Below the pieces are notes generated by a model. The model saw only the letters and a list, made by a program, of their open reading frames with translations, was not told the origin of the DNA and ran no database searches. Positions 1,367 to 30,672 of a stretch of 64,000 nucleotides of DNA are shown in pieces. The DNA comes from Minisyncoccota bacterium (GTDB taxonomy: Bacteria; Patescibacteriota; Minisyncoccia; Phycocordibacterales; XYD1-FULL-46-19): the NCBI GenBank assembly GCA_041665625.1, contig JBAYIK010000001.1, positions 2,091 through 66,090 on the forward strand, given 5' to 3'. The translations under genes were made by a program, and so were the position numbers. Each line of letters begins with the position of its first letter. Position 1 is the first letter of the stretch.

Positions 1367-1609
1367 ATGAGTAAGCCGATTCGTGAATTAACCAATGCTG
1401 AGATTATTGACAATGAAGGACATTTTGATAATTGTCTTCTCTTAAATATCCCGCACACCAGATATAGTCTCTATTGTGTTAAGCAAGCAGAGGATGATTG
1501 GGCTGTCTTTATGCTTGACATGATGAGCACTGACAGAGAGCTCGTCAATGAGCATATGACAAATGAAGTGTTAGCTAAGACTATTAGTCACATTCTTGAT
1601 CAAAAATAG
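1367..1609 (+). CDS. Hypothetical small protein.
   Basis: ORF with a hairpin plus T-run terminator immediately downstream (1607-1650). Confidence 0.4.
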   Translation: MSKPIRELTNAEIIDNEGHFDNCLLLNIPHTRYSLYCVKQAEDDWAVFMLDMMSTDRELVNEHMTNEVLAKTISHILDQK

Positions 1610-1811
1610 CCAGTAGCCCTCTTATTAGGACCACTGGCTATTTTGTCTTCGTCGCTATTAAGCACGCAGGTATAGGGCCAAAGATTTGGCATTGGCAACT
1701 CTCGCAAACTCTTCAGGTGTTGCCACCCTTGGTTCCTTAGAGTTTGACCCAGCGATATCATTCGCATCTCTATACCCACGCACTGGATAGCGACGAATAA
1801 ATTCTTGCTCT

Positions 1812-2489
1812 TTATCTCAGCCCAACAAATGAGCTGATCTGTTCGCTGGCCTCTTGTCTGGTCATGGTCAGCAGAGAGTTTAAGGATTCTTCTCGCTCAT
1901 TCTCATCAGGCACATGATCATAAATGAGTTGTGTCAGGTAGCTTTTTTGTCGGTCACTAATCATAGGCACACCATCGGGCTTTTCCTCTTCGATTTGAAT
2001 CGGACCACCATAGCTTGCTCTATCGTCCAAGTCCATGGTGAAGTAGGCACTGATATTAGCCGAGCGGATGATGGCCGACAAAAAAGCCGACTTTTCCGCG
2101 AGCTTAATGGTCTTGTTCTCATCATTGTCATTACGAGACAACGAAGCACATCCACGACCTTCTGAGGCAACACTGCCATTAGGATGATAGATAACGCACT
2201 TGAAGGCGATCAGGTTCTTGGCATCGCTAAAAGAGGCCAAAGTGTCTCGATCAAGCTCAAAACGACTGGTGAAGCCATAGATTTGTGCAATACGCTCGCC
2301 ACCGCCCTTGCTGAGCACTTTCTTGCCATCAATGACGTTGTAGTCTTGACCTTCTTGGAGAATCGGCAAAACCTTGTCGATAAAATATCTCCTTTTTAAC
2401 AACATCAAGTTAACACCCTGCTTGAAGTAATCGAGAGTATTGAGGACTTCGCTAACTCTAATTGCCCCTGTTTTGTTAAGAGTTTCCAT
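1812..2489 (-). CDS. Hypothetical protein, possibly phage-derived. The C-terminus appears to continue in the +1 frame (1650-1811), so this may be a frameshifted gene or pseudogene.
   Basis: A 225-aa ORF. Downstream of its stop, a protein-like +1 frame reads EQEFIRRYPVRGYRDANDIAGSNSKEPRVATPEEFARVANAKSLALYLRA. Confidence 0.45.
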   Translation of the reverse strand: METLNKTGAIRVSEVLNTLDYFKQGVNLMLLKRRYFIDKVLPILQEGQDYNVIDGKKVLSKGGGERIAQIYGFTSRFELDRDTLASFSDAKNLIAFKCVIYHPNGSVASEGRGCASLSRNDNDENKTIKLAEKSAFLSAIIRSANISAYFTMDLDDRASYGGPIQIEEEKPDGVPMISDRQKSYLTQLIYDHVPDENEREESLNSLLTMTRQEASEQISSFVGLR

Positions 2490-2497
2490 AACGATTA

Positions 2498-2797
2498 TTA
2501 ATTAGTTTCTGCTAATGGCTGGACCTGGAGTCGATGAAAAAGAGCGATGCGCTTAGGGTATTTCTTAAGTACATGGCCGTCCTGATCTTTCTTTTCTACT
2601 AGGGTTAGGCTAGAGAGAGACTTTTCGCCCTTTTTGACCACGAAGCCTAACTTAATCCACTCACGAAAGGTTCTGGCGTCTTGGTAGGGATCAAAGGACT
2701 CGGCAACTTCTTTTGAGAAGCGTTGAGCGATCTGGGCCTTGACGTCCTCATAGGTGCGAAGTGACCCACGATAATTTGTCTTAGTTAAAGTGACCAT
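2498..2797 (-). CDS. Hypothetical protein co-oriented with the upstream gene.
   Basis: 99-aa ORF, 8 bp upstream of the 1812..2489 gene. Confidence 0.45.
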   Translation of the reverse strand: MVTLTKTNYRGSLRTYEDVKAQIAQRFSKEVAESFDPYQDARTFREWIKLGFVVKKGEKSLSSLTLVEKKDQDGHVLKKYPKRIALFHRLQVQPLAETN

Positions 2798-3109
2798 AAT
2801 AATTAATGATTAATGACTAAAGACCTCGCTGGACTAGAGCGAGGCGAAGGGTGAAGCAATTAGTCGACCAATAAAATTAATTTATCTAATTACTTCAAAA
2901 ATATAGTTGGTAGCTTGTTTATGTCTTAGGGGATATGGGGGGTTGTCTTTGGGTCCCTTCTTGGCCTATAGCTGGGACCACAGAGTAATGGTCTCATCCG
3001 CTCCTGGGACTACTATTGTTAATTCCTAATAAAAAGGCCTAATTTGACCACCCTTTTAGCCAGAAAAAAATTTTTGTAAAAATTTGCAAAAAGGTGTTAC
3101 CATTAACTG

Positions 3110-3847
3110 ATGGGGTGGTTAGATTTTTCCAAAAAGAAACAAATTGAACCAGAGGACAAATCTGTTCCCCTGGACGTTGAATGCCCTTATTGCCAAGTTC
3201 CTCTTGGTAAGTTCCCCTCCAGAAAAGGGGTTTGTCCTCACTGCCAGAAGACTTATTGGGTAAGAACAGATCCTTTTTCTCGAGAGAGACTCGTTTTGAC
3301 TGAAGATGGTGTTAGGAAAAATGAAGAGCAACAATTTCGTTATCAATTAATCTCTGAATTTAAAAGATCCTTGTTTAATGTCATTGGCGAGGACGAGTTT
3401 GAGAAATTGTATCAAGAAACAAAAGAGGCTTTTGTTAAAAAACGTGGCAAGGCTCCATTAGAGGGAGACCTTATGTGGAGTATCTCTAATAAAATGATTC
3501 TGTTATCAGCCAAATCTCGTGATTGGCGGGCAAAGACTGGAATGATATATTGGGCTCAGTCTCAATTCGTTTATGGCGAAGGGAAGGACTACGCTTATAT
3601 CAGAGAAAAAGATTTTGAGTTGGAACTAAAGTTCTTACGAGAAACGGGAACTACTGATATGGTTGAGATCCTTGCAACGCCTAACAGCTGTCCTGAGTGC
3701 CAACGTTTTGATGGCAAAAAATTTACCATTGAAGAGGCTCTGGACCAGAAGATCTTGCCACACAAAAAGTGCACGACTGAGCCTAATAAAGCGGGCGTGG
3801 GCTGGTGTCGTTGCCTCTATGTACCAAGTCTTGATCACTTGGGATAA
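3110..3847 (+). CDS. Hypothetical protein with N- and C-terminal zinc-ribbon motifs.
   Basis: CPYC...CPHC near the N-terminus and CPEC...C..C near the C-terminus. Preceded by promoter-like block C. Confidence 0.5.
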   Translation: MGWLDFSKKKQIEPEDKSVPLDVECPYCQVPLGKFPSRKGVCPHCQKTYWVRTDPFSRERLVLTEDGVRKNEEQQFRYQLISEFKRSLFNVIGEDEFEKLYQETKEAFVKKRGKAPLEGDLMWSISNKMILLSAKSRDWRAKTGMIYWAQSQFVYGEGKDYAYIREKDFELELKFLRETGTTDMVEILATPNSCPECQRFDGKKFTIEEALDQKILPHKKCTTEPNKAGVGWCRCLYVPSLDHLG

Positions 3848-3903
3848 AATTGGTGTTGATTACCATCCCGGTCATTTAAGGTTTTTTTGTTATAATAGGG
3901 CCT

Positions 3904-4212
3904 ATGGTGGGATATAATTTTGGGGATTTTATTGAAGAGGTTAAAGACCTTGATCTTCCTGAGATCAGAAGGATTGCTGACCAAAAATGCCAACAGCTTG
4001 AGAATCTTTCTTGGGGAATAAAAGGGGCGGTAGAAAGAAGGGCACAAGGGAGCGCTGCTCTTGTGGAGAAGGTGAAAGGGTTGCTTTTTTGGCTTAATAC
4101 CGGGATCAAGCCCGCAGGGTTAACTGATGATGAATTTATTCTGTTAGAGAAAGTTTGTATAAAACTTATCGAGAAAGGACAGATGTCACCGGAGGCCTTA
4201 GGGGCCTTTTAA
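3904..4212 (+). CDS. Hypothetical protein.
   Basis: 102-aa ORF. Confidence 0.4.
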   Translation: MVGYNFGDFIEEVKDLDLPEIRRIADQKCQQLENLSWGIKGAVERRAQGSAALVEKVKGLLFWLNTGIKPAGLTDDEFILLEKVCIKLIEKGQMSPEALGAF

Positions 4213-4216
4213 ACTT

Positions 4217-4245
4217 TTGTAAAAAATTGCCCAAAATGGTAAACT
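4217..4245 (+). promoter_or_regulatory. Sigma70-type promoter TTGTAA-N17-TAAACT (extended TGg). It is part of a 42-bp block (4215-4256) repeated almost identically at 6394-6435.
   Basis: 'ttttgtaaaaaattgcccaaaatggtaaactcttgtcaagtat' here versus 'ttttgtaaaaaattgccaaaggtggtaaactcttgtcaagtgt' at 6394. Confidence 0.55.
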
Positions 4246-4271
4246 CTTGTCAAGTATCAAGAAAAGATAAA

Positions 4272-4682
4272 GCCATGTCTGATTTTTCGGAGCCAACTCA
4301 ACGAACCTCTAAATTAAGGGACTTGCAACAAAGTATTGCTGGTTCGGTTTTCCCTTTGGGCGCGACAGCTTTAATTGGCAAGGCAGAATTAAACAAAAAA
4401 TTACTTAGTGAGTACATGAGCCTTTGTTTGGAAGACCCCAATGTGGCAAAAGTGGCGAACGAAGAAGAACTTTTGGAAACCTGCGATCTTCTTCAAATGT
4501 CTGGTGCCGGGCAATGGGTTAAAGGCAGTTATGTATCTCTTCAGGTATTGAGTGACCCGCAGTTATTAGACTATTTCTTAAAAGCGACAAGAGCGGGCAA
4601 GTCTCTGATTGGGGTAGTCTTTAATTTAACAGAATACTTTGAAAAAGGATTATCTTACATCCCTAAGGAGTGGTTCGATTAA
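4272..4682 (+). CDS. Hypothetical protein; start taken at MSDFSEP, downstream of the repeated promoter block.
   Basis: The listed ORF 4155..4682 overlaps the promoter block; the internal Met follows the promoter. Confidence 0.45.
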   Translation, partial: AMSDFSEPTQRTSKLRDLQQSIAGSVFPLGATALIGKAELNKKLLSEYMSLCLEDPNVAKVANEEELLETCDLLQMSGAGQWVKGSYVSLQVLSDPQLLDYFLKATRAGKSLIGVVFNLTEYFEKGLSYIPKEWFD

Positions 4683-4726
4683 TTATAATTATTCCCGACC
4701 GAAAGGTTTGATATCTACGATACTTT

Positions 4727-5443
4727 ATGGCTGGCAAAAAACAAAAACAAGTTAGTGATCCTAGCCTCGCCCATCCTCATGAGGCCGGGTCCGAAGTTTG
4801 GCTGACTCAACCGGCAGTCCATCCTATTTATGGGACCATAATGTTTCCGATTCTTGACCACACTGATTTTTACTTCAAGGCGGCAGGATCTTGTCTTCAA
4901 GACGCAAAAAGGTATCATAACGAGATTTTATCTAAACCACTAAATAAATCTAACTGTCGGCTTGTTACTGACAACCAACTCCTGGGCAATTTCTTTCTTA
5001 ACGCTCAAAATGTTGTTCTATTTTCTTATTTGGCCCTAGAGTACTTTGCTTTGTCTTGTGCGGGGTCGTTTGGTAAACAGCGTCAATGGAAAGATCGACG
5101 ATTAGACCAGAAGATAAAACATTTAATTTCCCAAGAACTTGGAATCCCTAGGCTTCCCCAAGATCTGTGTTCTGCTTTTGGTGACATTGAGAATCGAAGA
5201 CATGCCTTAAATCATCCCCGCCCCGAAAGTGTTGCGAATGCTGATCCTCGAGAATGGGACTCGGTACATCTTGCCTGGCTACTTATAGGTAATTACGAAA
5301 AAACCTACTCAGACTCACTAAAAATTTATGAATACTTATCTGTTCCATACAAAGAACAGATGATGAGAAAATCTGGGCCAGTCACCTTAACTGGTGTTAA
5401 GCGTGGTATAAGGTTCGAAAATCAAGCTAAAAAGAATTTTTAA
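4727..5443 (+). CDS. Hypothetical protein.
   Basis: 238-aa ORF. Confidence 0.45.
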   Translation: MAGKKQKQVSDPSLAHPHEAGSEVWLTQPAVHPIYGTIMFPILDHTDFYFKAAGSCLQDAKRYHNEILSKPLNKSNCRLVTDNQLLGNFFLNAQNVVLFSYLALEYFALSCAGSFGKQRQWKDRRLDQKIKHLISQELGIPRLPQDLCSAFGDIENRRHALNHPRPESVANADPREWDSVHLAWLLIGNYEKTYSDSLKIYEYLSVPYKEQMMRKSGPVTLTGVKRGIRFENQAKKNF

Positions 5444-5456
5444 AGCTTAAAATTTT

Positions 5457-5855
5457 ATGGATGACTTAACCACAAAAACTGACGAGGAGCTACTGGCAAT
5501 TATTCGTCGTTGTGAAAATTCTAACGTCCCAGGTATCTTATATCAAAGAGCTTCGCAAGAACTGTCTTTAAGAGACAGAGATAAAATAATTAATAGGCCT
5601 AATAATTCTGGCTTGTTTTTGCGGGTTGGCGGGGACATGTTATTTGACGGGACAATTCAGGGTCCACAAGATGGGCCAATAGATATTGCCGTGGCCGGTA
5701 ATTATAAAAGCAAAAGTGGCAAAATTATTCAAGGGGGAAATGATCAAGAACCAATAAAAAGATGGTGGGAGAACAATTGGTTTCAAATAATTGCCTTAAT
5801 CGGAGCGATTGTCACTATTGTTTCTTTTGTCATATGGGTCAAGGGGCTTATTTAA
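5457..5855 (+). CDS. Hypothetical protein with a C-terminal transmembrane helix.
   Basis: C-terminal hydrophobic segment FQIIALIGAIVTIVSFVIWV. Confidence 0.45.
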   Translation: MDDLTTKTDEELLAIIRRCENSNVPGILYQRASQELSLRDRDKIINRPNNSGLFLRVGGDMLFDGTIQGPQDGPIDIAVAGNYKSKSGKIIQGGNDQEPIKRWWENNWFQIIALIGAIVTIVSFVIWVKGLI

Positions 5856-5892
5856 AAGAAGAAGTTAAAAAATTAATAACAAAAAAATATCC

Positions 5893-6387
5893 ATGTCTGG
5901 AATAATCATCCTAATCTTGTTGTTTGTGATCGCCGTGGCCGTTGTTAGGTTAATCAGGAAAAACTTTGGGACAAGAAACGACCAGCTCGTCTCAGTTTAT
6001 GAGAAAAAACCATACCTCTTTGATACAAACTCAGAGTTTAACCTATATAAGGTTTTACTTGAGCTGTTCGGGGACCAATATTTTATCTTCCCGCAGGTTA
6101 ATTATGGCCACTTGATACGACCAAAGAAAATTAGCTGGGCGAAAGAAAGAAATCTGCGAAGCCGAATCGACCGCAAGTCAGCAGACTTTGTCCTTTGTGA
6201 CCGGGAGCAGATTGTCCCTCGTCTGGTTATTGAGCTAGATGGCAGTGCTCATGATTTAAAGAAGAAAAAAGAGAGAGACGAGTTTATTAATGAGATAACA
6301 GAATCGATTGGCCTTCCGTTACTTCGTCTTAAGGTAGGGGACGTCGATAAGGAATCCATTCGGGGAAAGATCTCTAAGAAGCTCTAG
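5893..6387 (+). CDS. DUF2726-family protein: N-terminal TM helix plus a restriction-endonuclease-like fold domain.
   Basis: N-terminal TM. Motifs 'FNLYKVLLELFGDQYFIFPQV', 'SADFVLCD', 'LVIELDGSAHD' and 'IGLPLLRL' are typical of PF10881. Confidence 0.65.
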   Translation: MSGIIILILLFVIAVAVVRLIRKNFGTRNDQLVSVYEKKPYLFDTNSEFNLYKVLLELFGDQYFIFPQVNYGHLIRPKKISWAKERNLRSRIDRKSADFVLCDREQIVPRLVIELDGSAHDLKKKKERDEFINEITESIGLPLLRLKVGDVDKESIRGKISKKL

Positions 6388-6395
6388 GCCATATT

Positions 6396-6424
6396 TTGTA
6401 AAAAATTGCCAAAGGTGGTAAACT
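6396..6424 (+). promoter_or_regulatory. Second copy of the TTGTAA-N17-TAAACT promoter block.
   Basis: Near-identical to 4215-4256 (about 40 of 42 nt). Confidence 0.55.
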
Positions 6425-6496
6425 CTTGTCAAGTGTAGAGTTATTTTGTCGTGATAGTCACACGACAACATTTTTAGAAATAATTGATTTATTATT

Positions 6497-7201
6497 ATGT
6501 CTAACGATACTCAAGTTGTTAAGGAGGGGGCTAAAAATATCGCCTTTGGTTTAGGGCTTAGTTGGGTCGTTTCCGTTCTTTTTATTATCAGCGGGATTTC
6601 TGCCCTTTTTTCTAGTTTTCTTGTGGGAATTCTCATTCTCCTAATTGGCTTGATTTTTTTTCCTCCAGCGAATAAATTTATTAAGACCAAATGGAATTTG
6701 TCACTAACCAGAGGAGTGAAAATTACGACGGTTATCATTCTTTTAATTTTGGTCGGTATCTCTTGGAATCCTGCGACGCAGGAGACAACGAGTTCTGAAC
6801 AAACTAAAACACAACCATCTGCAGCTGCCAACCATACCATTGTCACCGCTACCACGACATCTGTAGTCGCTTCACAAAAAGACACCAAGAATATCTTACC
6901 TTTATCAAACGAAACAGTTAGCCAAAAGAATGCGGCTAAAAAGGCAAAGTCTTATTTAAATTACACAGCGTTCTCTTACGGTGGACTGGTCGCTCAGTTG
7001 GAGTATGATCAATTTTCACACGCTGATGCTGTCTACGGCGCAGATAATTCTGGTGCTAACTGGAATGAGCAAGCCGCTAAAAAGGCTAAATCATACATGG
7101 GTTATTCCGCCTTCTCCCGCGGTGGTTTGATCACGCAGTTAGAGTTTGACAAATTCACACAATCACAGGCAGAGTATGGAGCCAATGCCGCTGGCCTATA
7201 G
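6497..7201 (+). CDS. Membrane-anchored protein with two tandem Ltp-like (host cell surface-exposed lipoprotein, PF07553-like) domains, i.e. superinfection-exclusion-like.
   Basis: Two TM helices. Tandem repeats 'AAKKAKSYLNYTAFSYGGLVAQLEYDQFSHADAVYGADNSG' and 'AAKKAKSYMGYSAFSRGGLITQLEFDKFTQSQAEYGANAAG'. Confidence 0.6.
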   Translation: MSNDTQVVKEGAKNIAFGLGLSWVVSVLFIISGISALFSSFLVGILILLIGLIFFPPANKFIKTKWNLSLTRGVKITTVIILLILVGISWNPATQETTSSEQTKTQPSAAANHTIVTATTTSVVASQKDTKNILPLSNETVSQKNAAKKAKSYLNYTAFSYGGLVAQLEYDQFSHADAVYGADNSGANWNEQAAKKAKSYMGYSAFSRGGLITQLEFDKFTQSQAEYGANAAGL

Positions 7202-7220
7202 CAGTACAAAATAAAACACT

Positions 7221-7700
7221 GTGGGAAGTTTTTCATCAATCATAAATAAATTTATGGGCAATAGTTATTGGAGAGACAATAAATTAATTCAAGCTATTAA
7301 GGAAGAAAAGGATGAACATTTAAATTATGAAATTGAGATGTTCCGCGAGACCTGTAAACAACTTAACTTCCCTCAGCAGCGATTTGAAATGAACCTGTTG
7401 CTAGAATCGCTATCGGCCCATACCAGAACATTGATAGAGTTTTTTTATGACGATAAAGATGAGAAATATCCGAACGATTTAGTGGCTCAAGATCTTTTAC
7501 CCAATACAATAAACTGGAAAACTGAAAGGCCACAGATAACAGAGTTGCTTAAAGAGGCAAGAAATAAAGCCGATAAACAAGTTGCCCATTTGAGCCTTTG
7601 GAGGATAAAGATTGAACGAGATAACAAAAAGGCCTGGAACTGGAATGATGTCAGTAAAGACATGGAAAAAGTAGTAAAGAAATTTGAAGATTTAAGATAA
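7221..7700 (+). CDS. Hypothetical protein.
   Basis: 159-aa ORF. Confidence 0.45.
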   Translation: MGSFSSIINKFMGNSYWRDNKLIQAIKEEKDEHLNYEIEMFRETCKQLNFPQQRFEMNLLLESLSAHTRTLIEFFYDDKDEKYPNDLVAQDLLPNTINWKTERPQITELLKEARNKADKQVAHLSLWRIKIERDNKKAWNWNDVSKDMEKVVKKFEDLR

Positions 7701-7731
7701 TCAGGCCTAGGACTTATGGTACAATTATTAG

Positions 7732-8322
7732 ATGGAGAGACCTTTAGTCGAAGAAAGTTACCATTTATCAACTTCAGCTCTAAAACACTCCCTAGCCCGC
7801 TGTGGGAGCTCAAACGGGGCCATAATTGATGATCAACTCATCTTAACTACCGAGCACAAACAACTCACGGTTAATTATTGGCTGGAGAACGAAGCTCGAA
7901 GTTTGGCCATTAATCTTTGCGTGCCAGGTAATGAGCCCCAAAGGGTCGAGCTGATTCCTTTTGAGCTATCTTTTGGGACCAGATACTTCTTTGAGTGCCC
8001 CATTTGTTTCCGCCAAGTGAGTAAACTCTATTTGCCACCAGATCAGCAAGACTTTAAGTGTCGTCTCTGCCACCGCTTAGTCTATGAGCTCACGACCATC
8101 AACAAGAACTCAACCTTTGGCCAACAGCTTTACCGCAACGCTTGCTTTCTTCGCTTTATGAATGCTCCAGACCGTGCCATTAGAGTCTTTTATGGTCCTA
8201 ATTACACCAAGAACTATCTTCGTCGGATGAGATTTTACCGTAAGCTGGGTCTTGAAGAGCCCGGGGTTGAAAAAGTTAAAGAGAATCTTGCTTTAATTAG
8301 GAGACAAGAGGTTCATCATTAA
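7732..8322 (+). CDS. Hypothetical protein with a CxxC...CxxC zinc ribbon.
   Basis: FECPICFRQV...KCRLCHRL. Confidence 0.45.
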   Translation: MERPLVEESYHLSTSALKHSLARCGSSNGAIIDDQLILTTEHKQLTVNYWLENEARSLAINLCVPGNEPQRVELIPFELSFGTRYFFECPICFRQVSKLYLPPDQQDFKCRLCHRLVYELTTINKNSTFGQQLYRNACFLRFMNAPDRAIRVFYGPNYTKNYLRRMRFYRKLGLEEPGVEKVKENLALIRRQEVHH

Positions 8323-8556: not shown

Positions 8557-10347
8557 ATGTTCAAGACGTACGGAGAAGGCTCAAAAGGCCGGAAGGTTGA
8601 GGATTTGGAGCAATACGCTGAACTGCTCGCCTCCCTGGGAATGAAGATTCCTGGCGGGTTGGTGATTCTGAGTGGCGTGTTTCTTCAGGTTCTGGAGGCA
8701 CTGGGCCTTAACGAGGAGAGTTTCCCCTCGCACTTGGAAACGCAAACGGACTGTCCGGACTACCTGGCGGTGTTTAACCAGGAGATCTTGGACGACATGA
8801 CAATCGGCAGACCCTATGCCATCCGCTCTTCGGCTTTATCGGAGCGTGGCGGTACGGGTATCTACCACTCAACGTTCTTTGTTCCCCGTGGTGATCGCGA
8901 CCGTGATTTGCAATTGCTGTGGGAGAAAGAGCGTGACGTCTATGCCAGTGAACTCTCGGGGAATGCCCGAGCCTGGCGCGAGAAGAGCAAGGCACCGTTC
9001 GGAATGGCCATCTTTGTCCAACCCGTGTCCGGTTCCGAAGTTGATGGCTGTTGGCTTCCGTCCTTGTCTGGGGTTGCCTATACCTCATATCAAGGTCTGC
9101 CGACCGTTCGTCTGGTTGTCGGTCTTGGTACCCAAGCGGTCTCTGGTTGTGGCATTGTCGGCCACGAAAGTCCGGGCTTGGGCCAAGATGACTTCTTGCA
9201 CTTTCAGCGTGCCGTCTGGGATCTCGATGAGGCCGACATGATTGAACTCGGGACCGGGGATCTTGGTCAGATGAGAAGCCACTCGGAAATTATCCATGGC
9301 CAAATCGCCGAAGGCTACGAGGCTTTCTGTGGCTTGTTCGAGAAATTGTGGGAACTCAAGGATCACGGCGACTTCAGCTTGGAGTGGGCTCTGTCGGGGC
9401 CAGATTTGGACATCGTCCAGTGTGCGCCCTACGAGGACAAATTGCCTGGTGACATGTCCATCGACAAAAGCCGTTATTTCCTGTTCGTCAACGGGACCGA
9501 CGTCTTCAACTCTGGACGGAATGTCTGCCGAGCGGTGGTCTATGTCTACCATTGGTCGCCAATCGTGGCCAGTCGTCTTGAGAACCTCAACCGCCAACTG
9601 GCGGGGACCAACTATCTACTGATCGTTCCGCAGAAGGCGACCTCTCTATTGGCCAGCCTTGAGCGAGACGAGAAGACCCGGGAGGTTGGGAAACGGCTTG
9701 AATTCCGTCATTTCAGCAATGCCGGAGTCGTCATAGAGAAGCAACAACACCTGAGTGAGGACCAGAAAGAGGCCATGCGTCTCATGCGGATGAACACGGC
9801 GGACCATTCTGGCGGAGTGGGAGCCTCGCACTTCCAACAGCTCTGTTCGCGGAGTGACATTCTCTTTGTCGGAGCAACCTTTGATCCTTACTCGCTCTTC
9901 AATCTGCCCGGAGAAATGAGGTATGGCGATCCTGTAGACATCTCTGTCTGGTCGACTGAAGCAGTGGGCTTGGTTGATGGTGAGAAGAAGGAAGGCTATG
10001 TCTACCTGAGCAAAGAAGGCAAGTCGACTCGCTATCAGCCGGAACAGGTTCAAGAGTATTCAATGGCGATGAGGCAAGCGGCTCTCAATCTTGAAAGCTC
10101 AGGCCAAAAGAAACTGGTCAGCGCTCTCTACTCTGTCCACTACGCCATTGGTTCTGATGAGGGGCCGGTCCAGTTCGATCCGTTCAGTCTGGATGAAGAA
10201 ATTGTCGGAGAGCGTGGTCTCGACGGTCTCCGCCAGGATGTGCAAGTGGTGATTTCGGGCGTCGGCTCTGTCTCGAGATATGTCCCCGATATTTGGCGGA
10301 GCGAATTCCGTCAGTATCTGGAAGACTTGCGGGCCCATCTCAGTTAG
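8557..10347 (+). CDS. PEP-utilising-enzyme N-terminal (PPDK_N / ATP-grasp-like nucleotide-binding) domain protein. No phospho-His swivel domain is recognisable. GC-rich.
   Basis: 'YAIRSSALSERGGTGIYHSTFFV' matches the PPDK_N 'VRSSAtaED...SFAG' motif seen in authentic ppsA at 56141. GC about 58%; good RBS (aggagg). Confidence 0.55.
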   Translation: MFKTYGEGSKGRKVEDLEQYAELLASLGMKIPGGLVILSGVFLQVLEALGLNEESFPSHLETQTDCPDYLAVFNQEILDDMTIGRPYAIRSSALSERGGTGIYHSTFFVPRGDRDRDLQLLWEKERDVYASELSGNARAWREKSKAPFGMAIFVQPVSGSEVDGCWLPSLSGVAYTSYQGLPTVRLVVGLGTQAVSGCGIVGHESPGLGQDDFLHFQRAVWDLDEADMIELGTGDLGQMRSHSEIIHGQIAEGYEAFCGLFEKLWELKDHGDFSLEWALSGPDLDIVQCAPYEDKLPGDMSIDKSRYFLFVNGTDVFNSGRNVCRAVVYVYHWSPIVASRLENLNRQLAGTNYLLIVPQKATSLLASLERDEKTREVGKRLEFRHFSNAGVVIEKQQHLSEDQKEAMRLMRMNTADHSGGVGASHFQQLCSRSDILFVGATFDPYSLFNLPGEMRYGDPVDISVWSTEAVGLVDGEKKEGYVYLSKEGKSTRYQPEQVQEYSMAMRQAALNLESSGQKKLVSALYSVHYAIGSDEGPVQFDPFSLDEEIVGERGLDGLRQDVQVVISGVGSVSRYVPDIWRSEFRQYLEDLRAHLS

Positions 10348-10367
10348 CAGAAACAAGCTCGTGTGAA

Positions 10368-10407
10368 CATGCCCGTCAGACTTCGGTTTGGCGGGCATTA
10401 GTGTTTT
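10368..10407 (+). terminator. Rho-independent terminator.
   Basis: Stem ATGCCCG...CGGGCAT followed by TAGTGTTTT. Confidence 0.5.
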
Positions 10408-10777
10408 AATTATAAGATCAAATTTAGTGTTACCAGTTTATCGTCTTTATCGTCCTATCGTCGAGAGCAGACGATACTGACGGTAGAGACGATGTTTCGG
10501 GAGGATTAAGTGTTTGGTGGCTTGTCTTCCTTCAGATCGGGGATGATTACTGTGCTTACAAAAGTGCCATAATACCATTGCCACTTTTTAATATATTTTT
10601 CTAAGGTGTTCCAAGTAAATTCTTTCTTGTGCACAGGAGCAAGCAAGCGGCTTTGCTTACTTAGTATATTTGTGTTAGAACTAGCTCGGAAGCTTAGATG
10701 TTATTTGTCATGGAAAGTAGGAAAAAACAACTCAGAACAAAGACCTCATTGAGGCAAAAAGAGGAGAGACCTGTCTT

Positions 10778-12043
10778 ATGATGCCCCAAGCATTTCAGGA
10801 GCGACTCTTTCCCTGTTTGGAGGAAGTTGCTCGACACTACAAAACGCCTTTCCACGTCTATGATGAGGACGGAATCAGGCAAACCTGCCGAGAGATGAAA
10901 GGGTTACTCGGCCAAGTCTCGAAGTATCGCAATTTCTTTGCAGTCAAAGCTCTGCCCAACCCGGCAATCATGAAGATTGTTCTGGACGAAGGTTTCGGCT
11001 TTGATTGCTCGAGCGTTCCCGAATTGACGTTGGCCCGCAATGCCGGCGCCAAGCCGGACGAGATAATGTTCACCTCGAACAATACCTCATCACTTGAATA
11101 CAGTTGGGCCATGATGAATGGTGGCTGTATCCTCAATCTCGATGACTTGTCGTTCGTCCCCAAGGTCCCGAAGATGCCAGAGCTCATCTGCTTTCGGTAT
11201 AATCCTGGACCTCTGAGGGGCGGCAACGAGATTATCGGCGAGCCCGAAGAGGCCAAATACGGTGTGCGCGACGATCAGATTGTCGAGGCTTACCGCCAGG
11301 CCCGCGAACGTGGCGCTCGAAGGTTCGGCCTTCACACTATGATATGTTCCAACCAGCGTGACTACACATATATGTTGGTCACGGTTGGGATGATTCTGGG
11401 TGTGGCCAAGAGGTTGAAGGACGAGCTCGGTATCGAAGTCGAATTCGTGAACATTGGGGGAGGCTTCGGCATCCCCTACAAACCGACCGACGAGACCTTC
11501 AACCTGCAGGCTTTTGCCGAAGAGGCGAAGCTTGTCTTCGACGAGTTCGAGCAAGACAATGGCTGGCGTCCCGAACTATTCACTGAATGTGGCCGTTATG
11601 TTACGGGCCCGCACGGGGTGCTTGTCACTTCGGTGATCAACCGAATGGACAAGTATCTCCAGTTTGTGGGGGTAGACGCCTGTATGTCGGCGCTCATGCG
11701 TCCGGCGTTGTACGATGCCTATCACCACATCTACGTGCCTGGCCACGAAGATCGCCCTCTCGAGACCGTCAATGTCGTTGGCTCGCTTTGCGAGAACAAC
11801 GACCAGTTTGCCAAACAGCGGACCTTGCCGGTAACACGCGAGGGCGACTTGCTCGTCATCGCCAACACTGGTGCTCACGGTTTGGCCATGGGTTTCAACT
11901 ACAACGGACGCAAACGGACGAAGGAACTGTTGCGTCGGACAGATGAGACATTCGAACTTATTCGTCGCGAAGAAAGGGACGAAGACCTCTTCGCGACCTT
12001 AAGCTTCGGTTACAACAACACGTTCAAACCGACCCGAGCCTAG
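10778..12043 (+). CDS. PLP-dependent decarboxylase of the Orn/DAP/Arg decarboxylase family 2 (fold III), diaminopimelate- or carboxynorspermidine-decarboxylase-like.
   Basis: PLP-Lys motif 'FFAVKALPN', 'GGGFGIPY', and active-site 'GSLCENNDQF' (CES.D-type). GC-rich. Confidence 0.75.
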   Translation: MMPQAFQERLFPCLEEVARHYKTPFHVYDEDGIRQTCREMKGLLGQVSKYRNFFAVKALPNPAIMKIVLDEGFGFDCSSVPELTLARNAGAKPDEIMFTSNNTSSLEYSWAMMNGGCILNLDDLSFVPKVPKMPELICFRYNPGPLRGGNEIIGEPEEAKYGVRDDQIVEAYRQARERGARRFGLHTMICSNQRDYTYMLVTVGMILGVAKRLKDELGIEVEFVNIGGGFGIPYKPTDETFNLQAFAEEAKLVFDEFEQDNGWRPELFTECGRYVTGPHGVLVTSVINRMDKYLQFVGVDACMSALMRPALYDAYHHIYVPGHEDRPLETVNVVGSLCENNDQFAKQRTLPVTREGDLLVIANTGAHGLAMGFNYNGRKRTKELLRRTDETFELIRREERDEDLFATLSFGYNNTFKPTRA

Positions 12044-12071
12044 CTCGGAAGTTGTAAGAAAGGAAAAGGTT

Positions 12072-13271
12072 ATGCAATTCGAATCGTGGCTACCCAAAGG
12101 AGGAGCCAATCTCTTCCAGACCATTAAGAAAGTCTGCCAAGAGGCAGAGGCCGGTGGGCAGAAACTGTACCGTCTGTCCATCGGCCAGCCCCCTGGTCCG
12201 GCACTGGAGTCGGCACGTAATTATTGTGCCAATTCCGTTCTGATGACCGAAGACTGTTGGCACGAGTATCAGGACAACACGTTCCTGCCATACCCCGATT
12301 GGGCGATGCGTTTCTGCCAGGCCCACACGCCTCGCGTCAACTTGAAGGGTTATGGTGCCGAGCTCGACTACCTACCCATCCCGGGCATCAAGCCGATGCT
12401 GGGTCTGGTGATGTTGGCCTGTGGCGCCGAGCAGAAGCGTCAAGACCTTCATGTGATGAGCATGACCGCTCCGGGCTATCCTGTCCCCAGAGATTGGGCC
12501 GGCTATCTCGGCGTGACCCACGGATCCTTCAGTCTCAATCCGAAGAATGCCTTCCTTCCCGATCTGGAAGACGAGGAGAGTATCTTCCGGATTGACCTCG
12601 CGATGATGAACCTGCCCCACAATCCGTCGGGGCAGATCGCCACTTACGAATTTTGGCGGGAAGTTTGCGAATTCTGCTCCAAGAAGGGGATTCGTCTCGT
12701 CAATGATGGTGCTTACCTGGCACTGTCCCACGACAAGCGCAGCCGGGCCTTGGCCGAAGTGGCCGTGGATTTCCCGGGACTGGAGTGGATCGAACTCTTC
12801 TCGGCGTCCAAATCAATCGCGAACGGGACGGGCTGGCGCATTGGAGGCATGGTCGGCTCGCCCGATTTTGTCAACGACATCAAGAAGATAAAAGGGAACA
12901 CCGACTCCGGCTTCTTTGCCCCCGCGGCCGCCGGTGCCTTGTTTGCCCTTGAGAACGATCAGGCGGGTGTCGCTGGAGTTGGTCGCTTGTACGAAGAGCG
13001 GCTCAAACTTCTTGTCCCGATCTTGAAGGAACGGGGACTTCGTTTGGCGGTTGACCCCGGTGCCGGTTTCTTCTCCCTTTGGGAGTCGCCCAAGTACGCC
13101 TTCGGCCGGGAAATGAAGAATGCCGAAGACTTCAACCTCAGTCTGATTCGGGAAACCGGTATCGTCGGTGTGCATTTCGACCCGTATATCCGCTTTGCGG
13201 TGTGCGGGCCGATAGAGAACTGGATCGTCCCGATCACACAGGCCTTTGAGAAGGCCAACGTTTCCTACTGA
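12072..13271 (+). CDS. Class I/II PLP aminotransferase, LL-diaminopimelate aminotransferase (DapL)-like.
   Basis: 'NLPHNPSG' and 'SASKSIANGTGWRIGGMVG' (SxSKxxxxxGxRxG) hallmarks. GC-rich. Confidence 0.7.
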   Translation: MQFESWLPKGGANLFQTIKKVCQEAEAGGQKLYRLSIGQPPGPALESARNYCANSVLMTEDCWHEYQDNTFLPYPDWAMRFCQAHTPRVNLKGYGAELDYLPIPGIKPMLGLVMLACGAEQKRQDLHVMSMTAPGYPVPRDWAGYLGVTHGSFSLNPKNAFLPDLEDEESIFRIDLAMMNLPHNPSGQIATYEFWREVCEFCSKKGIRLVNDGAYLALSHDKRSRALAEVAVDFPGLEWIELFSASKSIANGTGWRIGGMVGSPDFVNDIKKIKGNTDSGFFAPAAAGALFALENDQAGVAGVGRLYEERLKLLVPILKERGLRLAVDPGAGFFSLWESPKYAFGREMKNAEDFNLSLIRETGIVGVHFDPYIRFAVCGPIENWIVPITQAFEKANVSY

Positions 13272-16151: not shown

Positions 16152-16433
16152 ATGAAGAAAAACGCTCTGATTACCGCCTTGGTGGTCTTGTTGCTCGTGG
16201 CTGGGATGATTATTCTCCAGCTCTGGCCCAAGACCTCTTCGGTGGAAAAGACGTCCGCCCCGGTGGTGACGAAAGTTGCCGCCCCTGCTCCCGAGCCGCC
16301 GGCACTTGTGCCTGCGTCTCTACCTGTCTCGACCCCGGCGCCTGTCGCGCCGATGTCGAAGGTTGACGAGAAGTTGTCAAAACTGCACTTCGGATTGTCT
16401 TCTGATGTGCAGCCGATAAATGTCGTAAAGTAA
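16152..16433 (+). CDS. Small TM / Pro-Ala-rich secreted protein, GC-rich.
   Basis: N-terminal TM 'ALITALVVLLLVAGMIIL' followed by a PAPEPPALVP-rich region. Confidence 0.5.
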   Translation: MKKNALITALVVLLLVAGMIILQLWPKTSSVEKTSAPVVTKVAAPAPEPPALVPASLPVSTPAPVAPMSKVDEKLSKLHFGLSSDVQPINVVK

Positions 16434-16435
16434 AC

Positions 16436-17509
16436 GTGAAGGAGAAGATCATGAAGAAGGCAACGTTGATTTGGGTTCTGGCGGCCATGATGTCCATCTC
16501 GGCCTGGGCTGGTGGGTATACCGACGCCGAGCGCGTCGCCGATGCGTTCGCTTCGGTGGATGTCAACCAGTATGAGGGGCAGTTCGGGTTTACCCGTTTG
16601 CTTCCCAACGGTACGTCCAGCGATGTCCGGGGAGACTTTTCCCTCGACGCCAACGGCAAGATACCTCGCCTCGTCATTGATGGGGTGTCGGTGGTCAACT
16701 GGGGCGACGAACCCCTTGGCGGCTTGCCCGTCAACAAACTCGGCAGTGCCACCAACTACTGGCTCAGGCTGGATGGTTGGGATGGCAAAGCCGGAAGGTT
16801 CGCCATCTACGGTTGGTTCAGTACCGTTCTGCTTGAGCCCAAAGACCGAATCACCGTTGAACTGAACCTTGCGTACGTCGAAGCGTTTGTGGCTTTCGAT
16901 GCCGCCGACTATGACTCTTCGCGTCTTGTGCTTCGCTACAGTAATGGAGAGTCCGGTTATGACACTTCGCGGGGAGGTTTCGTCCTATGGATTGACCCCG
17001 CCGCGAGCGATGTTTCGTATGACATTGTCGATACAGGCATTAGCCAAGTCGTTGCCAGTGGTACGCTCCAGTCGGGTGTTGCCGAGGACAATGTCATCAA
17101 CAAGTTTATGCCGGCCGGAGTGCGAGAATTGTTCCCGGTGGGCCAAGACTTTGTGTCCTTACATGACCAGTGGTTTGGCTCGTCCATTCTGCGGAACGAG
17201 GCGTGGGTCCCTGCTCAGATCTATATCGCTCGCGCCTACGGCAGTGCCCTGACCCTTGAACCGAGTGGTACGGCTGTTGGTCGAGTCGAAGTTTATGCAG
17301 TCGACGATGACCGCAACCGCACGCTCGTTTCCGAGTTGGACATCCCTGTCCCCGTCTCGGTTGGCAAGGGTGGTGGTGTCGAAACCCGTCCGATCCTCAA
17401 TGTTCCCGCCGGGTACGAGAACCTGGTCATTGAGTTGATCGGGGCCCCGGATAACTGGGGAAGCTTCGGCATCGTGGCCTACAAGGCCCAACAGGGTGGC
17501 CGCGGTTAA
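16436..17509 (+). CDS. Secreted hypothetical protein, GC-rich.
   Basis: Signal peptide MKKATLIWVLAAMMSISAWA. Translationally coupled to the previous gene. Confidence 0.55.
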   Translation: MKEKIMKKATLIWVLAAMMSISAWAGGYTDAERVADAFASVDVNQYEGQFGFTRLLPNGTSSDVRGDFSLDANGKIPRLVIDGVSVVNWGDEPLGGLPVNKLGSATNYWLRLDGWDGKAGRFAIYGWFSTVLLEPKDRITVELNLAYVEAFVAFDAADYDSSRLVLRYSNGESGYDTSRGGFVLWIDPAASDVSYDIVDTGISQVVASGTLQSGVAEDNVINKFMPAGVRELFPVGQDFVSLHDQWFGSSILRNEAWVPAQIYIARAYGSALTLEPSGTAVGRVEVYAVDDDRNRTLVSELDIPVPVSVGKGGGVETRPILNVPAGYENLVIELIGAPDNWGSFGIVAYKAQQGGRG

Positions 17510-17547
17510 TACCTGGCCCTTCCTTTCAACCTCTAACCTGTAACCCC

Positions 17548-17586
17548 CCGCCTGCTGAGCTTTGCTCGGCAGGCGGTTTCTTTTTG
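17548..17586 (+). terminator. Rho-independent terminator.
   Basis: Stem CCGCCTGC...GCAGGCGG followed by TTTCTTTTT. Confidence 0.7.
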
Positions 17587-17666
17587 GCTTTACTTAGAAA
17601 GTTTTTAATGTTAGTAATTAGCCAGGTTTGAACAAATATGGGTTTTAACAGAAGAGGAATTAGCTC

Positions 17667-18050
17667 ATGGGTAGGACAGTGGCGTTGCTTCGGACATCAG
17701 AAGGGATCGAAGAGCCGATTCGGATTGGCTTTAATGATCGAAAGTTGTCGGACTGTGATCGGCTAAAAATGGTTTTTGGACACCGGCTGGCTAGGGCTCT
17801 CTGGCTTTCTTTCGGCCGAGGGCAACGCGTTTTCGATCTTGAGAGTTGGTGCCTTAGACTGGCCGTTGAGATTGAAAAGTTGGGATATTTCCCTGAAGCC
17901 TCCGAATTGTACCAAATGGTTAAGATGAGGGCTGAGACCTTGCCTGGCCAAATAGTACTCGACTCTTTCGCGGAATCGAACGTTTTCTTTTCTCGCTTGG
18001 CTGAGGCCCTGCGAGACCCTTTGGCTCCGATCACTTACATTGAGGCTTAA
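17667..18050 (+). CDS. Hypothetical protein, GC-rich.
   Basis: 127-aa ORF followed by hairpin CCCACCG...CGGTGGG. Confidence 0.45.
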   Translation: MGRTVALLRTSEGIEEPIRIGFNDRKLSDCDRLKMVFGHRLARALWLSFGRGQRVFDLESWCLRLAVEIEKLGYFPEASELYQMVKMRAETLPGQIVLDSFAESNVFFSRLAEALRDPLAPITYIEA

Positions 18051-18359: not shown

Positions 18360-19688
18360 GTGCTAAAGCTCAGAAAAATTTATTTTCTGTTTGTTATTTT
18401 TTTCTTCGCCAGCCCTCTTGTTGGTTTGGCGGAGAGTGCCAGTTCGGCCAGTTTTAATTTGCTCGAAGGGGTTATTTCTCCGGCGGGTTATTCGGCTTCT
18501 AGTAATTTCAAACTTAACGGCCTCATTTCACAATTTAGTATTGGACCGAGTCAGGCGGCCAATTTTCTTTTGAAGAGTGGCCTTCTTTATTTTCCGATTA
18601 TCAGCACCCCGGTTATTACTAGTTCGGCGGGGGATGGCCAGGTTGCTTTATCTTGGACAGGGGCGACAGGTCTCTTGGGTTGGAGCGTTGGCGAGTACGT
18701 TGTTGGTTGGTCAGGAATTTCAGGTGGCCCGTATACTTTAATTAGCGCGGGGACCAATCTTAGTTATACAAAGACGGGCCTAAGTAATGGCACTCCATAT
18801 TATTTTATAATTAAAGTTAAAGATGCTCTCGGTAACTATGTGGCAACTTCCACCCAAGTTTCAGTAACACCAGTTGCTCCTGTCGTTATCCCCCCTGGTG
18901 GCGGAGGAGGCGGGGGTGGCGGAGGAGGCGGGGGCGGAGCTACTGGTGGCGCCCGAGCAATTTTCCGCGGGCGGGCCTTCCCCTCAAGCGATGTCTCTCT
19001 TTTCCGTGATGGACAAAATGTCGCAACGACTAAAGCTGGGCCTGACGCTAACTTCGAAATTTCTTTAGGTAACTTATCGGCCGGCCTTTATAATTTTGGA
19101 GTCAATTCTACTGACAATTTGGGCCGTCAATCCTTAATTCAGACTTTCCCGGTAACTTTGTCCGGCAGTGCGGAGGTGGTAATTAGCGGTATTTTTATTG
19201 CCCCCTCAATTTCGGTTGATAAGCAAGAAGTTAAACAGGGTGATAATATTGCCATCTTTGGGCAGAGTGTTCCCAATGCCAAAGTGACAATTGCCATTAA
19301 TTCCGAGCAACAAATTTTTGCTCAAGCCGGGACTGACAAGTCGGGGGCTTATTTATATAATCTTGATACCGCCCCTTTAGAATTGGGTGGCCACACCGCG
19401 AAGTCTAAGGCGGCTCTGGCGACCGAGATAAGTCCTTTTGGCCCAACAGCAGGCTTTAAGGTTGGGACAGAAAATGTGCTAGCTGACCTTAAGGCCAAGA
19501 AATGTCCGGCTAAGGGGGATCTCAATACCGACTGTAAGGTCAACCTAATAGACTTTTCTATTGCTGCTTATTGGTACAAGCGCCCACTCTCGGCGACTTT
19601 CCTGGCTCTCGAGAAGACAAAATTGAATGGCGATGGCAAACTTAATTTAACTGATTTTAGTATTATGGCGTACTACTGGTCTTCTTAA
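18360..19688 (+). CDS. Secreted multi-domain protein: FN3/Ig-like domains, a Gly14 linker and a C-terminal dockerin-like domain.
   Basis: Signal peptide. Dockerin repeats 'GDLNTDCKVNLIDFSIAAYWY' and 'LNGDGKLNLTDFSIMAYYW'. GTG start. Confidence 0.6.
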   Translation: MLKLRKIYFLFVIFFFASPLVGLAESASSASFNLLEGVISPAGYSASSNFKLNGLISQFSIGPSQAANFLLKSGLLYFPIISTPVITSSAGDGQVALSWTGATGLLGWSVGEYVVGWSGISGGPYTLISAGTNLSYTKTGLSNGTPYYFIIKVKDALGNYVATSTQVSVTPVAPVVIPPGGGGGGGGGGGGGGATGGARAIFRGRAFPSSDVSLFRDGQNVATTKAGPDANFEISLGNLSAGLYNFGVNSTDNLGRQSLIQTFPVTLSGSAEVVISGIFIAPSISVDKQEVKQGDNIAIFGQSVPNAKVTIAINSEQQIFAQAGTDKSGAYLYNLDTAPLELGGHTAKSKAALATEISPFGPTAGFKVGTENVLADLKAKKCPAKGDLNTDCKVNLIDFSIAAYWYKRPLSATFLALEKTKLNGDGKLNLTDFSIMAYYWSS

Positions 19689-19698
19689 ACTTAAAAAT

Positions 19699-20613: not shown

Positions 20614-20654
20614 TTATTTGTAACTAGTTGTATAATTAAGAGGTAAATATATCT

Positions 20655-22127: not shown

Positions 22128-22211
22128 AAGTTCTTACTTAGTTATCCCCTAAGAAACTCTCTTTTTGCTTAATAAATAACATTAATATTTGCTATAATAT
22201 AAGCAAACTTT

Positions 22212-29468: not shown

Positions 29469-29657
29469 ATGTCAGACGAATTAAAAGTTAAAGCTCAAAG
29501 ATTAGGTCAATTACTAGCCAACTCTACCACTCTCGATCTAGACCAGAAGATGAGAATTCTTGGTCTACTTAAAGGCATGACAGAGGGGCAAATTGATAGC
29601 CTAATTATTTATCTAGACGAGGGTATTGGCGATTTGGAGTTAATTCTTGCCATTTAA
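29469..29657 (+). CDS. Small conserved hypothetical protein; paralog of 15665..16003.
   Basis: See 15665. Its 3' end overlaps miaA convergently by about 53 nt. Confidence 0.55.
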   Translation: MSDELKVKAQRLGQLLANSTTLDLDQKMRILGLLKGMTEGQIDSLIIYLDEGIGDLELILAI

Positions 29658-30667: not shown

Positions 30668-30672
30668 CCTAT

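Follow-up and report, generated by a model that had tools for sequence, protein, structure and literature searches.

Bacterial immune genes have been described in hotspots between the core genes of mobile elements, as in P2-like prophages and P4-like satellites (Rousset et al., 10.1101/2021.01.21.427644), and defence islands are also carried on the integrative elements known as pipolins (PMC11551731). The locus considered here lies at positions 1367–8322 of a 64,000-nt stretch (the window) of contig JBAYIK010000001.1 from a Minisyncoccota bacterium, and it resembles these systems in its layout, a fixed slot between core genes holding strain-specific, putatively immune genes, the orphans among them being candidates by association. 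It is unlike the P2/P4 hotspots in its Patescibacteria host, in a backbone of serine recombinase, phage-type single-strand annealing protein (SSAP), ArdC-N-like and zinc-ribbon proteins with no virion or satellite genes, in the copy of one promoter/palindrome that heads each of the window's cassettes, and in having no recombinase in the assembled sequence. We consider it reasonably probable that this stretch forms the cargo bay of a locus derived from a mobile element and present in a Paceibacteria (Patescibacteria) clade, and that the cargo serves the exclusion of phages or other foreign DNA.

A second comparison is with phage morons and integron cassette arrays, which the locus resembles in its promoter-gene-terminator units within a conserved backbone and in the short repeats at cassette boundaries. 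Unlike integrons, it has no IntI integrase and no attI or attC site, and its repeats are promoter-like, do not correspond to the sites of any known recombinase and occur once per cassette; unlike morons, its cassettes have no phage around them. For Patescibacteria, horizontal transfer connected with defence has been remarked on in a general way (PMC12455944). We found no description of this type of locus in the searchable literature; the hotspot concept is already known, and it is the phylum, the backbone, the repeated promoter/palindrome at the cassette heads and the structured RNA that appear to be new. Patescibacteria, whose genomes are tiny, are frequently described as having few classical defences, and how they acquire and exchange immune genes is little understood. 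A conserved backbone beside a swappable slot offers a practical handle for mining defence genes in these organisms.

Backbone and exchangeable slot

Between a PG_binding_1 surface-protein gene (851–1354) and a GC-rich block that starts at 8557 lies a run of small open reading frames (ORFs) with no housekeeping assignment, as an initial annotation of this DNA had proposed and as the ORF list and Pfam bear out. That annotation counted 11 of them; the ORF list and the public gene calls on the source contig (WCV68_000xx locus tags) agree on the same set of 12, encoding in order proteins of 80, 225, 99, 245, 102, 135/148, 238, 132, 164, 234, 148 and 196 amino acids (aa) (Table 1). The BipA protein of the source genome is at most 74% identical to that of any GTDB species representative, its best matches all being from Patescibacteria.

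Loci of relatives were fetched via homologues of o225 and are given L-numbers here. In L102, where o225 is 94% and o99 98% identical, the surface protein, the PG_binding gene, o225, o99 and the control region are all present. The slot, however, differs from that of the window and is filled with HSDR_N_2 and SNase-LTD proteins, followed by homologues of o148 (72%) and o196 (29%), a 204-aa gene and, next to ychF, a large serine recombinase of 564 aa. L106 (o225 74% identical) shares both flanks with the window, the right one consisting of an Orn/DAP decarboxylase (79%) and an aminotransferase (50%); its slot contains proteins of 390 and 226 aa, a PIN_3 protein and a degraded copy of o196. The slot of L111 holds DUF3800 and SNase proteins, several orphans and a homologue of o102 (55% identical). 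Of two relatives at 55–56%, P0007 has WYL and NYN on one side and Prim-Pol with a serine recombinase on the other, and P0008 has NucS/YhcG, a type I-like R and M/S pair, Shedu SduA_C and UvrD with PDDEXK.

An alignment-based metagenome scan added 13 further loci with o225-like proteins at 32–45% identity. Their recurring order is serine recombinase, then at some distance o196-like, o99-like, a ~66-aa ORF, o225-like and a ~79-aa ORF, and the serine recombinases of the L102 type found in relatives are 45–64% identical. In L133 and L135 o196 stands directly divergent to o99 with no cargo between the two, an empty slot. A Dam-type methylase, an EcoRI methylase, GmrSD-HNH, DUF3644 and type I-like restriction-modification genes neighbour the module in these 13 loci, and a PADLOC census of 108 neighbours returned type I, II and III restriction-modification, SNc+LTD (three times), PbeA (three times), HEC-05, NsnA, PD-T4-2, PD-Lambda-5 and PDC-S19. 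Homologues of o196 sit beside the module in L102, L106 (the degraded copy), L117, L122, L131, L133 and L135, and o99 is found in every relative.

As judged from these alignments, the backbone, which recurs in at least 13 loci, is made up of o225, o99, the control region and o196, partly also o148, together with a large serine recombinase in the relatives. It follows from the comparison that the window-specific cargo comprises o245, o102, o135, o238, o132, the DUF2726 gene and the Ltp-like gene (3110–7201), with o80 in a second slot, at whose position L102 has a 212-aa gene and L106 nothing; the conserved DNA common to the window and L102 begins only at 1601. The initial annotation had called the whole an accessory island and had proposed a check for conserved synteny among relatives. 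Between the conserved flanks the content differs in every relative examined and is not syntenic, so that the description fits the slot; it does not fit o225, o99, o196 and, in part, o148, 4 of the 12 genes, which belong to the backbone.

The same annotation had described the island as low in GC. Its GC content is 0.411; the window as a whole averages 0.446, and 1-kb segments have a median of 0.44 (interquartile range 0.418–0.46). The island does lie slightly under the median, but the contrast comes from the adjacent blocks at 0.51–0.59: the compositional outlier is the neighbouring GC-rich block, not the island. Low GC was accordingly rejected as too weak a sign of foreign origin.

Table 1. 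Features of the locus, in window coordinates.
Feature	Position	Strand	Description
o80	1367–1609	+	80-aa acidic protein in second small variable slot; ORF, no family match
Hairpin and T-run	1603–1644		Predicted intrinsic terminator common to convergent o80 and o225/RNA transcripts
Structured RNA-like element	1639–1802	-	~160 nt, directly 3' of o225; the supposed frameshift extension
o225	1812–2489	-	Predicted phage-type SSAP, Rad52/ERF/RecT-like fold; conserved backbone gene, intact
o99	2498–2797	-	Small basic 99-aa protein, weak ArdC N-terminal (ssDNA-binding) likeness; backbone, always upstream of o225
Divergent control region	2798–3109		Between o99 and cargo; on average 76% identical to L102 and L106 across ~300 nt
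P1	TTGTAA at 3074		Promoter-like copy in control region, upstream half only; -10/palindrome half replaced
o245	3110–3847	+	Cargo; N-terminal 4-Cys zinc ribbon (C25/28/42/45) and C-terminal Cys cluster
o102	3904–4212	+	Cargo protein; last gene of cassette 1
P2	4215–4255	+	Full motif (TTGTAA-N17-TAAACT and CTCTTGTCAAGT), heads cassette 2
o135	4275–4682	+	Cargo; likely start ATG 4275, downstream of P2; no family match
o238	4727–5443	+	Candidate HEPN-like RNase; invariant E-x-R-R-H-x-L-N-H-P (Rx4H) motif
o132	5457–5855	+	Tail-anchored membrane protein, transmembrane segment at 106–132 (hydropathy); no family match
DUF2726 protein	5893–6387	+	164 aa, membrane-anchored, predicted Vsr/PD-(D/E)XK-type nuclease fold; acidic/His core intact
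P3	6394–6434	+	Second full motif copy, heads cassette 3; followed by 5'-leader hairpin at 6446–6468
Ltp-like protein	6497–7201	+	234 aa; three transmembrane-like segments (12–94), Ser/Thr-rich spacer (93–140), Ltp repeats 140–187 and 187–234
o148	7254–7700	+	Semi-conserved: 72% identical in L102, absent in L106 (tblastn); no significant family match
o196	7732–8322	+	4-Cys zinc-ribbon protein; backbone gene at far border of cargo slot

Promoter-led cassettes and their proteins

At the end of the relatives' control region stands a promoter-like motif, TTGTAA-N17-TAAACT, followed by the near-palindrome CTCTTGTCAAGT. L102 and L106 each carry a single copy upstream of their cargo, and P2 of the window matches both. 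The window has three copies, all within the island and none elsewhere in the 64 kb. The block common to the window and L102 in blastn ends at 3093, inside the promoter of P1; P2 and P3 are 93% identical over 41 nt, each directly after the last gene of the preceding cassette. From the placement of P1 to P3, the cargo therefore falls into three promoter-led units: cassette 1 is o245-o102, with a small GGCC hairpin and T-run at its end (4190–4215); cassette 2 is o135-o238-o132-DUF2726, with spacers of 13–44 nt; and cassette 3 is the Ltp-like gene, then o148-o196. The copies are predicted to be sigma-70-like promoters of ~40 nt with a palindrome at the start site. From the positions of the junctions in this one genome we infer that cassettes may have been added by recombination inside the common promoter sequence, and the repeated promoter/palindrome suggests a simple mechanism of cassette accretion. 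As a separate observation, P2 and P3 form 41-nt direct repeats, 2179 bp apart, that flank cassette 2, and recombination between them would delete the o135-DUF2726 operon cleanly.

Within the control region itself, an inverted repeat (CCTCGCT-N7-AGCGAGG, 2824–2844) located ~25 nt upstream of the o99 start is nearly invariant in the window, L102 and L106, with one mismatch in L102, and could be an operator or a 5'-leader hairpin. The control region (2798–3075) was also considered as a structured RNA and rejected, with one conserved hairpin only and little covariation.

The DUF2726 protein closes cassette 2. Both the family assignment and the N-terminal transmembrane segment that had been proposed for it are borne out: the Pfam match (PF10881) has an E value of 7.9e-26 and 90.7 bits against a curated cut-off of 24.7, covering profile positions 6–123 of 126, with a further match to DUF559 at 2.6e-5, and hydropathy places a hydrophobic anchor at residues 1–26, followed by basic residues. 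By the positive-inside rule, these basic residues would put the nuclease domain on the cytoplasmic side. Residues D98, E114, D116 and H120 are invariant in comparison with three distant members (from a Vibrio inovirus, a plasmid and Brevibacillus), and their putative catalytic role would follow that of the superfamily. The Vibrio copies have the same N-terminal anchor. In Vibrio filamentous phages DUF2726 is accessory cargo beside secretin/Zot genes, one copy adjoining a PD-T7-4 defence gene, and DUF2726 proteins are also found on 116 plasmids, 77 of the 116 records being conjugative. Two of the Vibrio loci are L143 (Vibrio phage 10N.261.54.B5_PE001, 5764–7238) and L144 (3803–4429). To our knowledge, no member of the family has a demonstrated function.

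In published classifications DUF2726 belongs to the PD-(D/E)XK superfamily, without known function, and has been noted among mobile elements (PMC3424549), and DUF2726 domains occur fused to Abi-type N-terminal domains (PMC3710099). The window protein is like these DUF2726/Vsr-DUF559 nucleases in its full-length match, in the conserved D, E-x-D and H, and in its mobile-element or conflict setting. It differs from the family at large in being short, stand-alone and N-terminally anchored, as are the Vibrio inovirus and plasmid copies. A near-identical strain (L004, JGI 3300037810) carries three clustered single-nucleotide polymorphisms in this gene, at window positions 5990–6010; the change of TAT to TAG puts a stop at Tyr36, so that the protein there is truncated to a 91-aa call, and the nonsense variant is either a natural knockout or an assembly error.

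Here, too, the initial annotation was right about the protein encoded at the head of cassette 3, a membrane protein with two Ltp-like domains. PF07553 (Lipoprotein_Ltp) matches it in two stretches with an E value of 3.9e-22 and 78.5 bits, above the curated cut-off of 23.2, and it matches phrog_4980, labelled 'superinfection exclusion', at 6.6e-31. Its hydrophobic segments span residues 12–63 and 68–94, and the spacer that follows (93–140) is 38% Ser plus Thr. Proteins with 47–65% identity to the repeat pair occur in 145 phage records and 17 IMG/VR contigs. By Pfam and PHROG, no phage genes surround the gene in the window. The prototype, Ltp of Streptococcus thermophilus phage TP-J34, is built of an anchor, a Ser-rich spacer and a repeat domain, the repeats acting on the tape-measure protein (PMC3952083). 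The window protein resembles it in having a membrane anchor, a Ser/Thr-rich spacer and two tandem repeats (PMC3952083). It is unlike the prototype in being anchored by three transmembrane-like segments in place of a signal peptide with a lipidated Cys, in its host from the candidate phyla radiation (CPR), and in having no recognisable prophage around it. As it contains no cysteine, it is not a lipoprotein.

A third cargo protein, o238, is a tentative HEPN-type RNase. Its RRHxLNHP motif is invariant across an eight-member family, and its AlphaFold2 (AF2) model, with a mean predicted local distance difference test (pLDDT) score of 68, is a helical bundle whose top PDB matches are HepT/HEPN toxins, at weak E values of 0.03–0.05 and probabilities of 0.98–1.0. 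By its Rx4H motif and the top, though weak, structural matches of its model it would be comparable with the HepT/MntA-type HEPN toxins; it is unlike them in having no sequence-profile match and no adjacent MNT-type antitoxin, and in being larger (238 aa) with an N-terminal extension. No Pfam family matches o238, and the profile of its family finds nothing among PDB sequences. Homologues lie beside Fic and NYN genes, or in an island with TIR, DUF5615, AbiE and a serine recombinase; the idea that o238 is part of a fixed multi-gene system was rejected, the homologues being alone or with other neighbours.

The initial annotation's two zinc-ribbon proteins are identified as o245 and o196 by their CxxC...CxxC pairs (C25/28/42/45 and C89/92/110/113, respectively), the Pfam zinc-ribbon matches being sub-threshold. 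o245 has only eight homologues and is absent from L102, L106 and L111. The o196 family, on the other hand, spans 612 representative clusters, with C89, C92, C110 and Y118 invariant, and has no Pfam or NCBIfam family. The orphan island proteins gave no useful matches in PADLOC, PHROGs or NCBIfam. As candidates, then, the locus nominates the anchored DUF2726 nuclease, the transmembrane-anchored Ltp-like protein, the HEPN-like family and several orphan proteins.

The annealing-protein gene and the element behind it

The gene o225 lies in a stretch (1650–2489) that had been annotated as a probably frameshifted, phage-like gene. The phage-like part stands. The AF2 model (pLDDT 78.8) has as its best PDB structure match the Sak SSAP of phage 80alpha (E 0.013). 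Among models of viral proteins (BFVD), 56 match it at E ≤ 1e-3, those that carry a name being the RecT family (6e-10), ERF and Rad52/59/22; in addition, the sequence matches phrog_10048 at 2.5e-9. On the strength of these models, o225 is predicted to have an SSAP fold, and no SSAP family matches it by sequence profile, either in Pfam or in a search of PDB sequences with the profile of the o225 family. The frameshift does not stand: since ten homologues, all of 222–234 aa, can be aligned with o225 from end to end, the gene is intact, and the downstream stretch shows covariation of the RNA type.

Upstream of it, o99 is weakly similar to the ArdC N-terminal domain. ArdcN is the only family matched by 8 of the 15 members of the o99 family (best E value 4.7e-4), and the family profile finds no match among PDB sequences. 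In the distant relatives L117–L135 two further small ORFs accompany the pair. One, of ~66 aa, lies between the o99-like and SSAP genes; the other, of ~79 aa, directly follows the SSAP gene (e.g., L126 10680–10910 and L133 10674–10913) and is homologous to the SSAP's own C-terminal three-helix domain (33–38% identity), a detached duplicate.

The stretch behind o225 that had been taken for its frameshifted extension is, by the comparative evidence, a conserved structured non-coding element and not coding sequence. L102, L106 and L141 share with the window some 200 nt of conserved DNA behind o225, and L142 has a divergent form of it. The element lies at 1639–1802 (minus strand) in the window, at 10688–10850 in L102, 10704–10865 in L106, 1141–1304 in L141 and 795–961 in L142; it is absent in L111 and L140, its presence thus varying among close relatives. 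In the predicted fold a long closing stem encloses a multi-hairpin junction, and an intrinsic terminator comes after it. RNAalifold gives 54 pairs, 12–13 of them with compensatory changes, and 88.9% of cells are paired. Thirteen pairs change on both sides, compared with 6.6 in shuffled alignments (0 of 500 reaching that number) and 0–5 in slid-partner controls. The minimum free energy is -96.7 kcal/mol (z -9.6) on the minus strand versus -75.5 kcal/mol (z -6.8) on the plus strand, the minus strand thus being favoured by 21 kcal/mol. The L142 copy retains the architecture with a wholly different closing stem.

The terminator is an inverted repeat (I7) with 18-nt arms, 89% complementary, which forms the 3' hairpin of the fold and is kept after the stop codon or the RNA element in all relatives. 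The element has no Rfam match; the Rfam scan of the window returned only three tRNAs and nothing in 1550–3200. It was also considered as a multi-copy miniature inverted-repeat transposable element (MITE) and rejected as such, a covariance model finding a single copy at each locus and no further one in 372 kb. The element could act as RNA, either a 3'-UTR element or a small RNA, or as single-stranded DNA, and it constitutes a new motif to characterise. It may be added that L141 and L142 encode an identical SSAP and yet carry different variants of the element.

Function, origin and flanks

The proposal that the content resembles a phage-defence or exclusion island, made in the initial annotation, receives a divided answer. 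Of the two outcomes named there as refuting it, neither was observed: the content is not syntenic among relatives, and the DUF2726 and Ltp assignments both exceed curated cut-offs. The slots and neighbourhoods of the relatives do hold defence systems, which lends the proposal indirect support; the locus's own 12 proteins, on the other hand, have no PADLOC match. Judging from their domains and from what fills the relatives' slots, the DUF2726 nuclease and the Ltp-like protein are probably phage-exclusion genes. The defence role is an inference, since no island gene itself matches a known system. One may picture the locus as follows. A leftward operon encodes o99, the ArdC-N-like protein, and the o225 SSAP, with the structured RNA-like element behind them. 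Cassettes would accumulate by recombination at the common promoter sequence. The Ltp-like repeats might be displayed on the cell surface via the transmembrane helices and prevent the injection of phage genomes in the manner of TP-J34 Ltp; the DUF2726 nuclease, anchored on the inner side of the cell membrane, might cut entering DNA or act as a suicide effector; and o238 could act as a HEPN-type RNase.

Several points weigh against the proposed exclusion cargo bay. At E ≤ 0.01 the 12 island proteins have no match among PADLOC models, bar one noise-level match at 0.0067, and 7 of the 12 are without any family assignment. The lipoprotein anchor that defines the TP-J34 prototype is absent in the Ltp-like protein, and PF07553 domains reportedly occur in non-exclusion proteins as well, pneumococcal CbpL among them. 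The HEPN assignment of o238 is tentative, falling below significance at the sequence level. The ArdC-N likeness of o99 is weak and sub-threshold (ArdcN, E 0.0019, 18.8 bits, cut-off 22.6). Cassette stacking by recombination is proposed from a single genome with three motif copies. Finally, neither the 64 kb nor the 2.1 kb that separate them from the contig end contain a serine recombinase or a remnant of one, and the mobility of the window copy is for this reason unproven. The window begins 2.1 kb from the end of a 293-kb metagenomic contig, ERZ27249449 k141_595606, and because this assembly break is on the side where the relatives carry small genes and the serine recombinase, the element's other end may be unassembled.

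A fuller version of the exclusion cargo bay is also conceivable, though we regard it as doubtful: an undescribed family of Patescibacteria integrative elements, with cargo stacked by recombination at the ~40-nt promoter/operator, possibly driven by the SSAP, such that each cassette would arrive pre-wired to one signal. The new structured RNA (1639–1802) would then have a role in the element, and the membrane-anchored DUF2726 protein and the transmembrane-anchored Ltp-like protein would make up an entry-blocking pair.

It was also suggested at the outset that the locus is a prophage remnant, that is, the lysogeny and recombination end of a decayed temperate phage whose genes are lysogenic-conversion morons. 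An annealing protein of phage type with its PHROG match, an Ltp repeat pair abundant in phage genomes and labelled for superinfection exclusion, cassettes in the moron layout of promoter, gene or genes and terminator, and the large serine recombinases flanking the module in relatives would all suit such an origin. We nonetheless think it unlikely. By Pfam and PHROG no virion, packaging or lysis genes (capsid, portal, terminase, tail, lysis) are present in the first 20 kb of the window or in the 8–10 kb flanks of the 13 relatives, and since no phage structural genes were found the locus is not a recognisable prophage. The SSAP (o225) family, o196, the o238 family and the DUF2726 protein, moreover, have no IMG/VR relatives in the scans run, nor do the promoter motif and the RNA-like element have any match there. 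One relative, with its Prim-Pol and serine recombinase, suggests a non-viral integrative element. As far as can be judged from the sequences, the backbone resembles an integrative element of the serine-recombinase kind that carries a recombination module of phage type.

Somewhat less likely still is an ordinary lineage-specific cluster with no role in conflict, given over to the surface or host-attachment biology of an episymbiont, its variability reflecting fast evolution of surface genes. The island does stand among PG_binding, Ig-like and cohesin/dockerin genes and the gene for a 2299-aa protein, most of its proteins have no annotation, and its GC is not anomalous. The relatives, however, differ by gene replacement and not by divergence, the replacements are genuine restriction and defence systems, the backbone has recombinase and annealing proteins, and the cargo has a nuclease (DUF2726) and a HEPN-like protein. 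An anti-defence or establishment island, in which o99, the SSAP and the cargo would aid entry of the element like the leading regions of conjugative plasmids and would not protect the host, is improbable: o99 does resemble the N-terminal domain of the anti-restriction factor ArdC, DUF2726 is frequent on conjugative plasmids (the 77 of 116 records above) and a strong common promoter fits early expression, but the ArdC-N likeness is sub-threshold with the metalloprotease half absent, the relatives' slots hold complete restriction-modification systems, Shedu and others that are defences and not counter-defences, and a surface protein of the Ltp type has no obvious counter-defence role.

Beyond the island, the GC-rich blocks at 8557–13271 and ~16250–17750 (GC 0.51–0.59 vs ~0.44) contain genes for an ATP-grasp protein (PPDK_N-like), an Orn/DAP decarboxylase and an aminotransferase, as well as for a protein of 357 aa without a Pfam match. 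In L106 the decarboxylase and aminotransferase genes are GC-rich as well (0.54–0.56 vs 0.43), followed by DapB and then by another serine recombinase; neither L102 nor L106 has the PPDK_N-like gene, for which the genome and metagenome contigs scanned gave no close relatives. These blocks have the appearance of lysine-pathway genes acquired by horizontal transfer, and may belong to the same element. Further along, 18360–29111 is a run of large surface proteins with Ig-like, dockerin and cohesin domains, within which the 2299-aa protein carries a Peptidase_S74 (endosialidase chaperone) domain, a type also known from the tail fibres of phages. The ORF at 30592–31650 (GTG start) probably has its true start further downstream because it overlaps, on the same strand, a tRNA-Leu gene (30586–30669), and a 314-aa ORF (29605–30549, minus strand) lies between the tRNA-Trp and tRNA-Leu genes.

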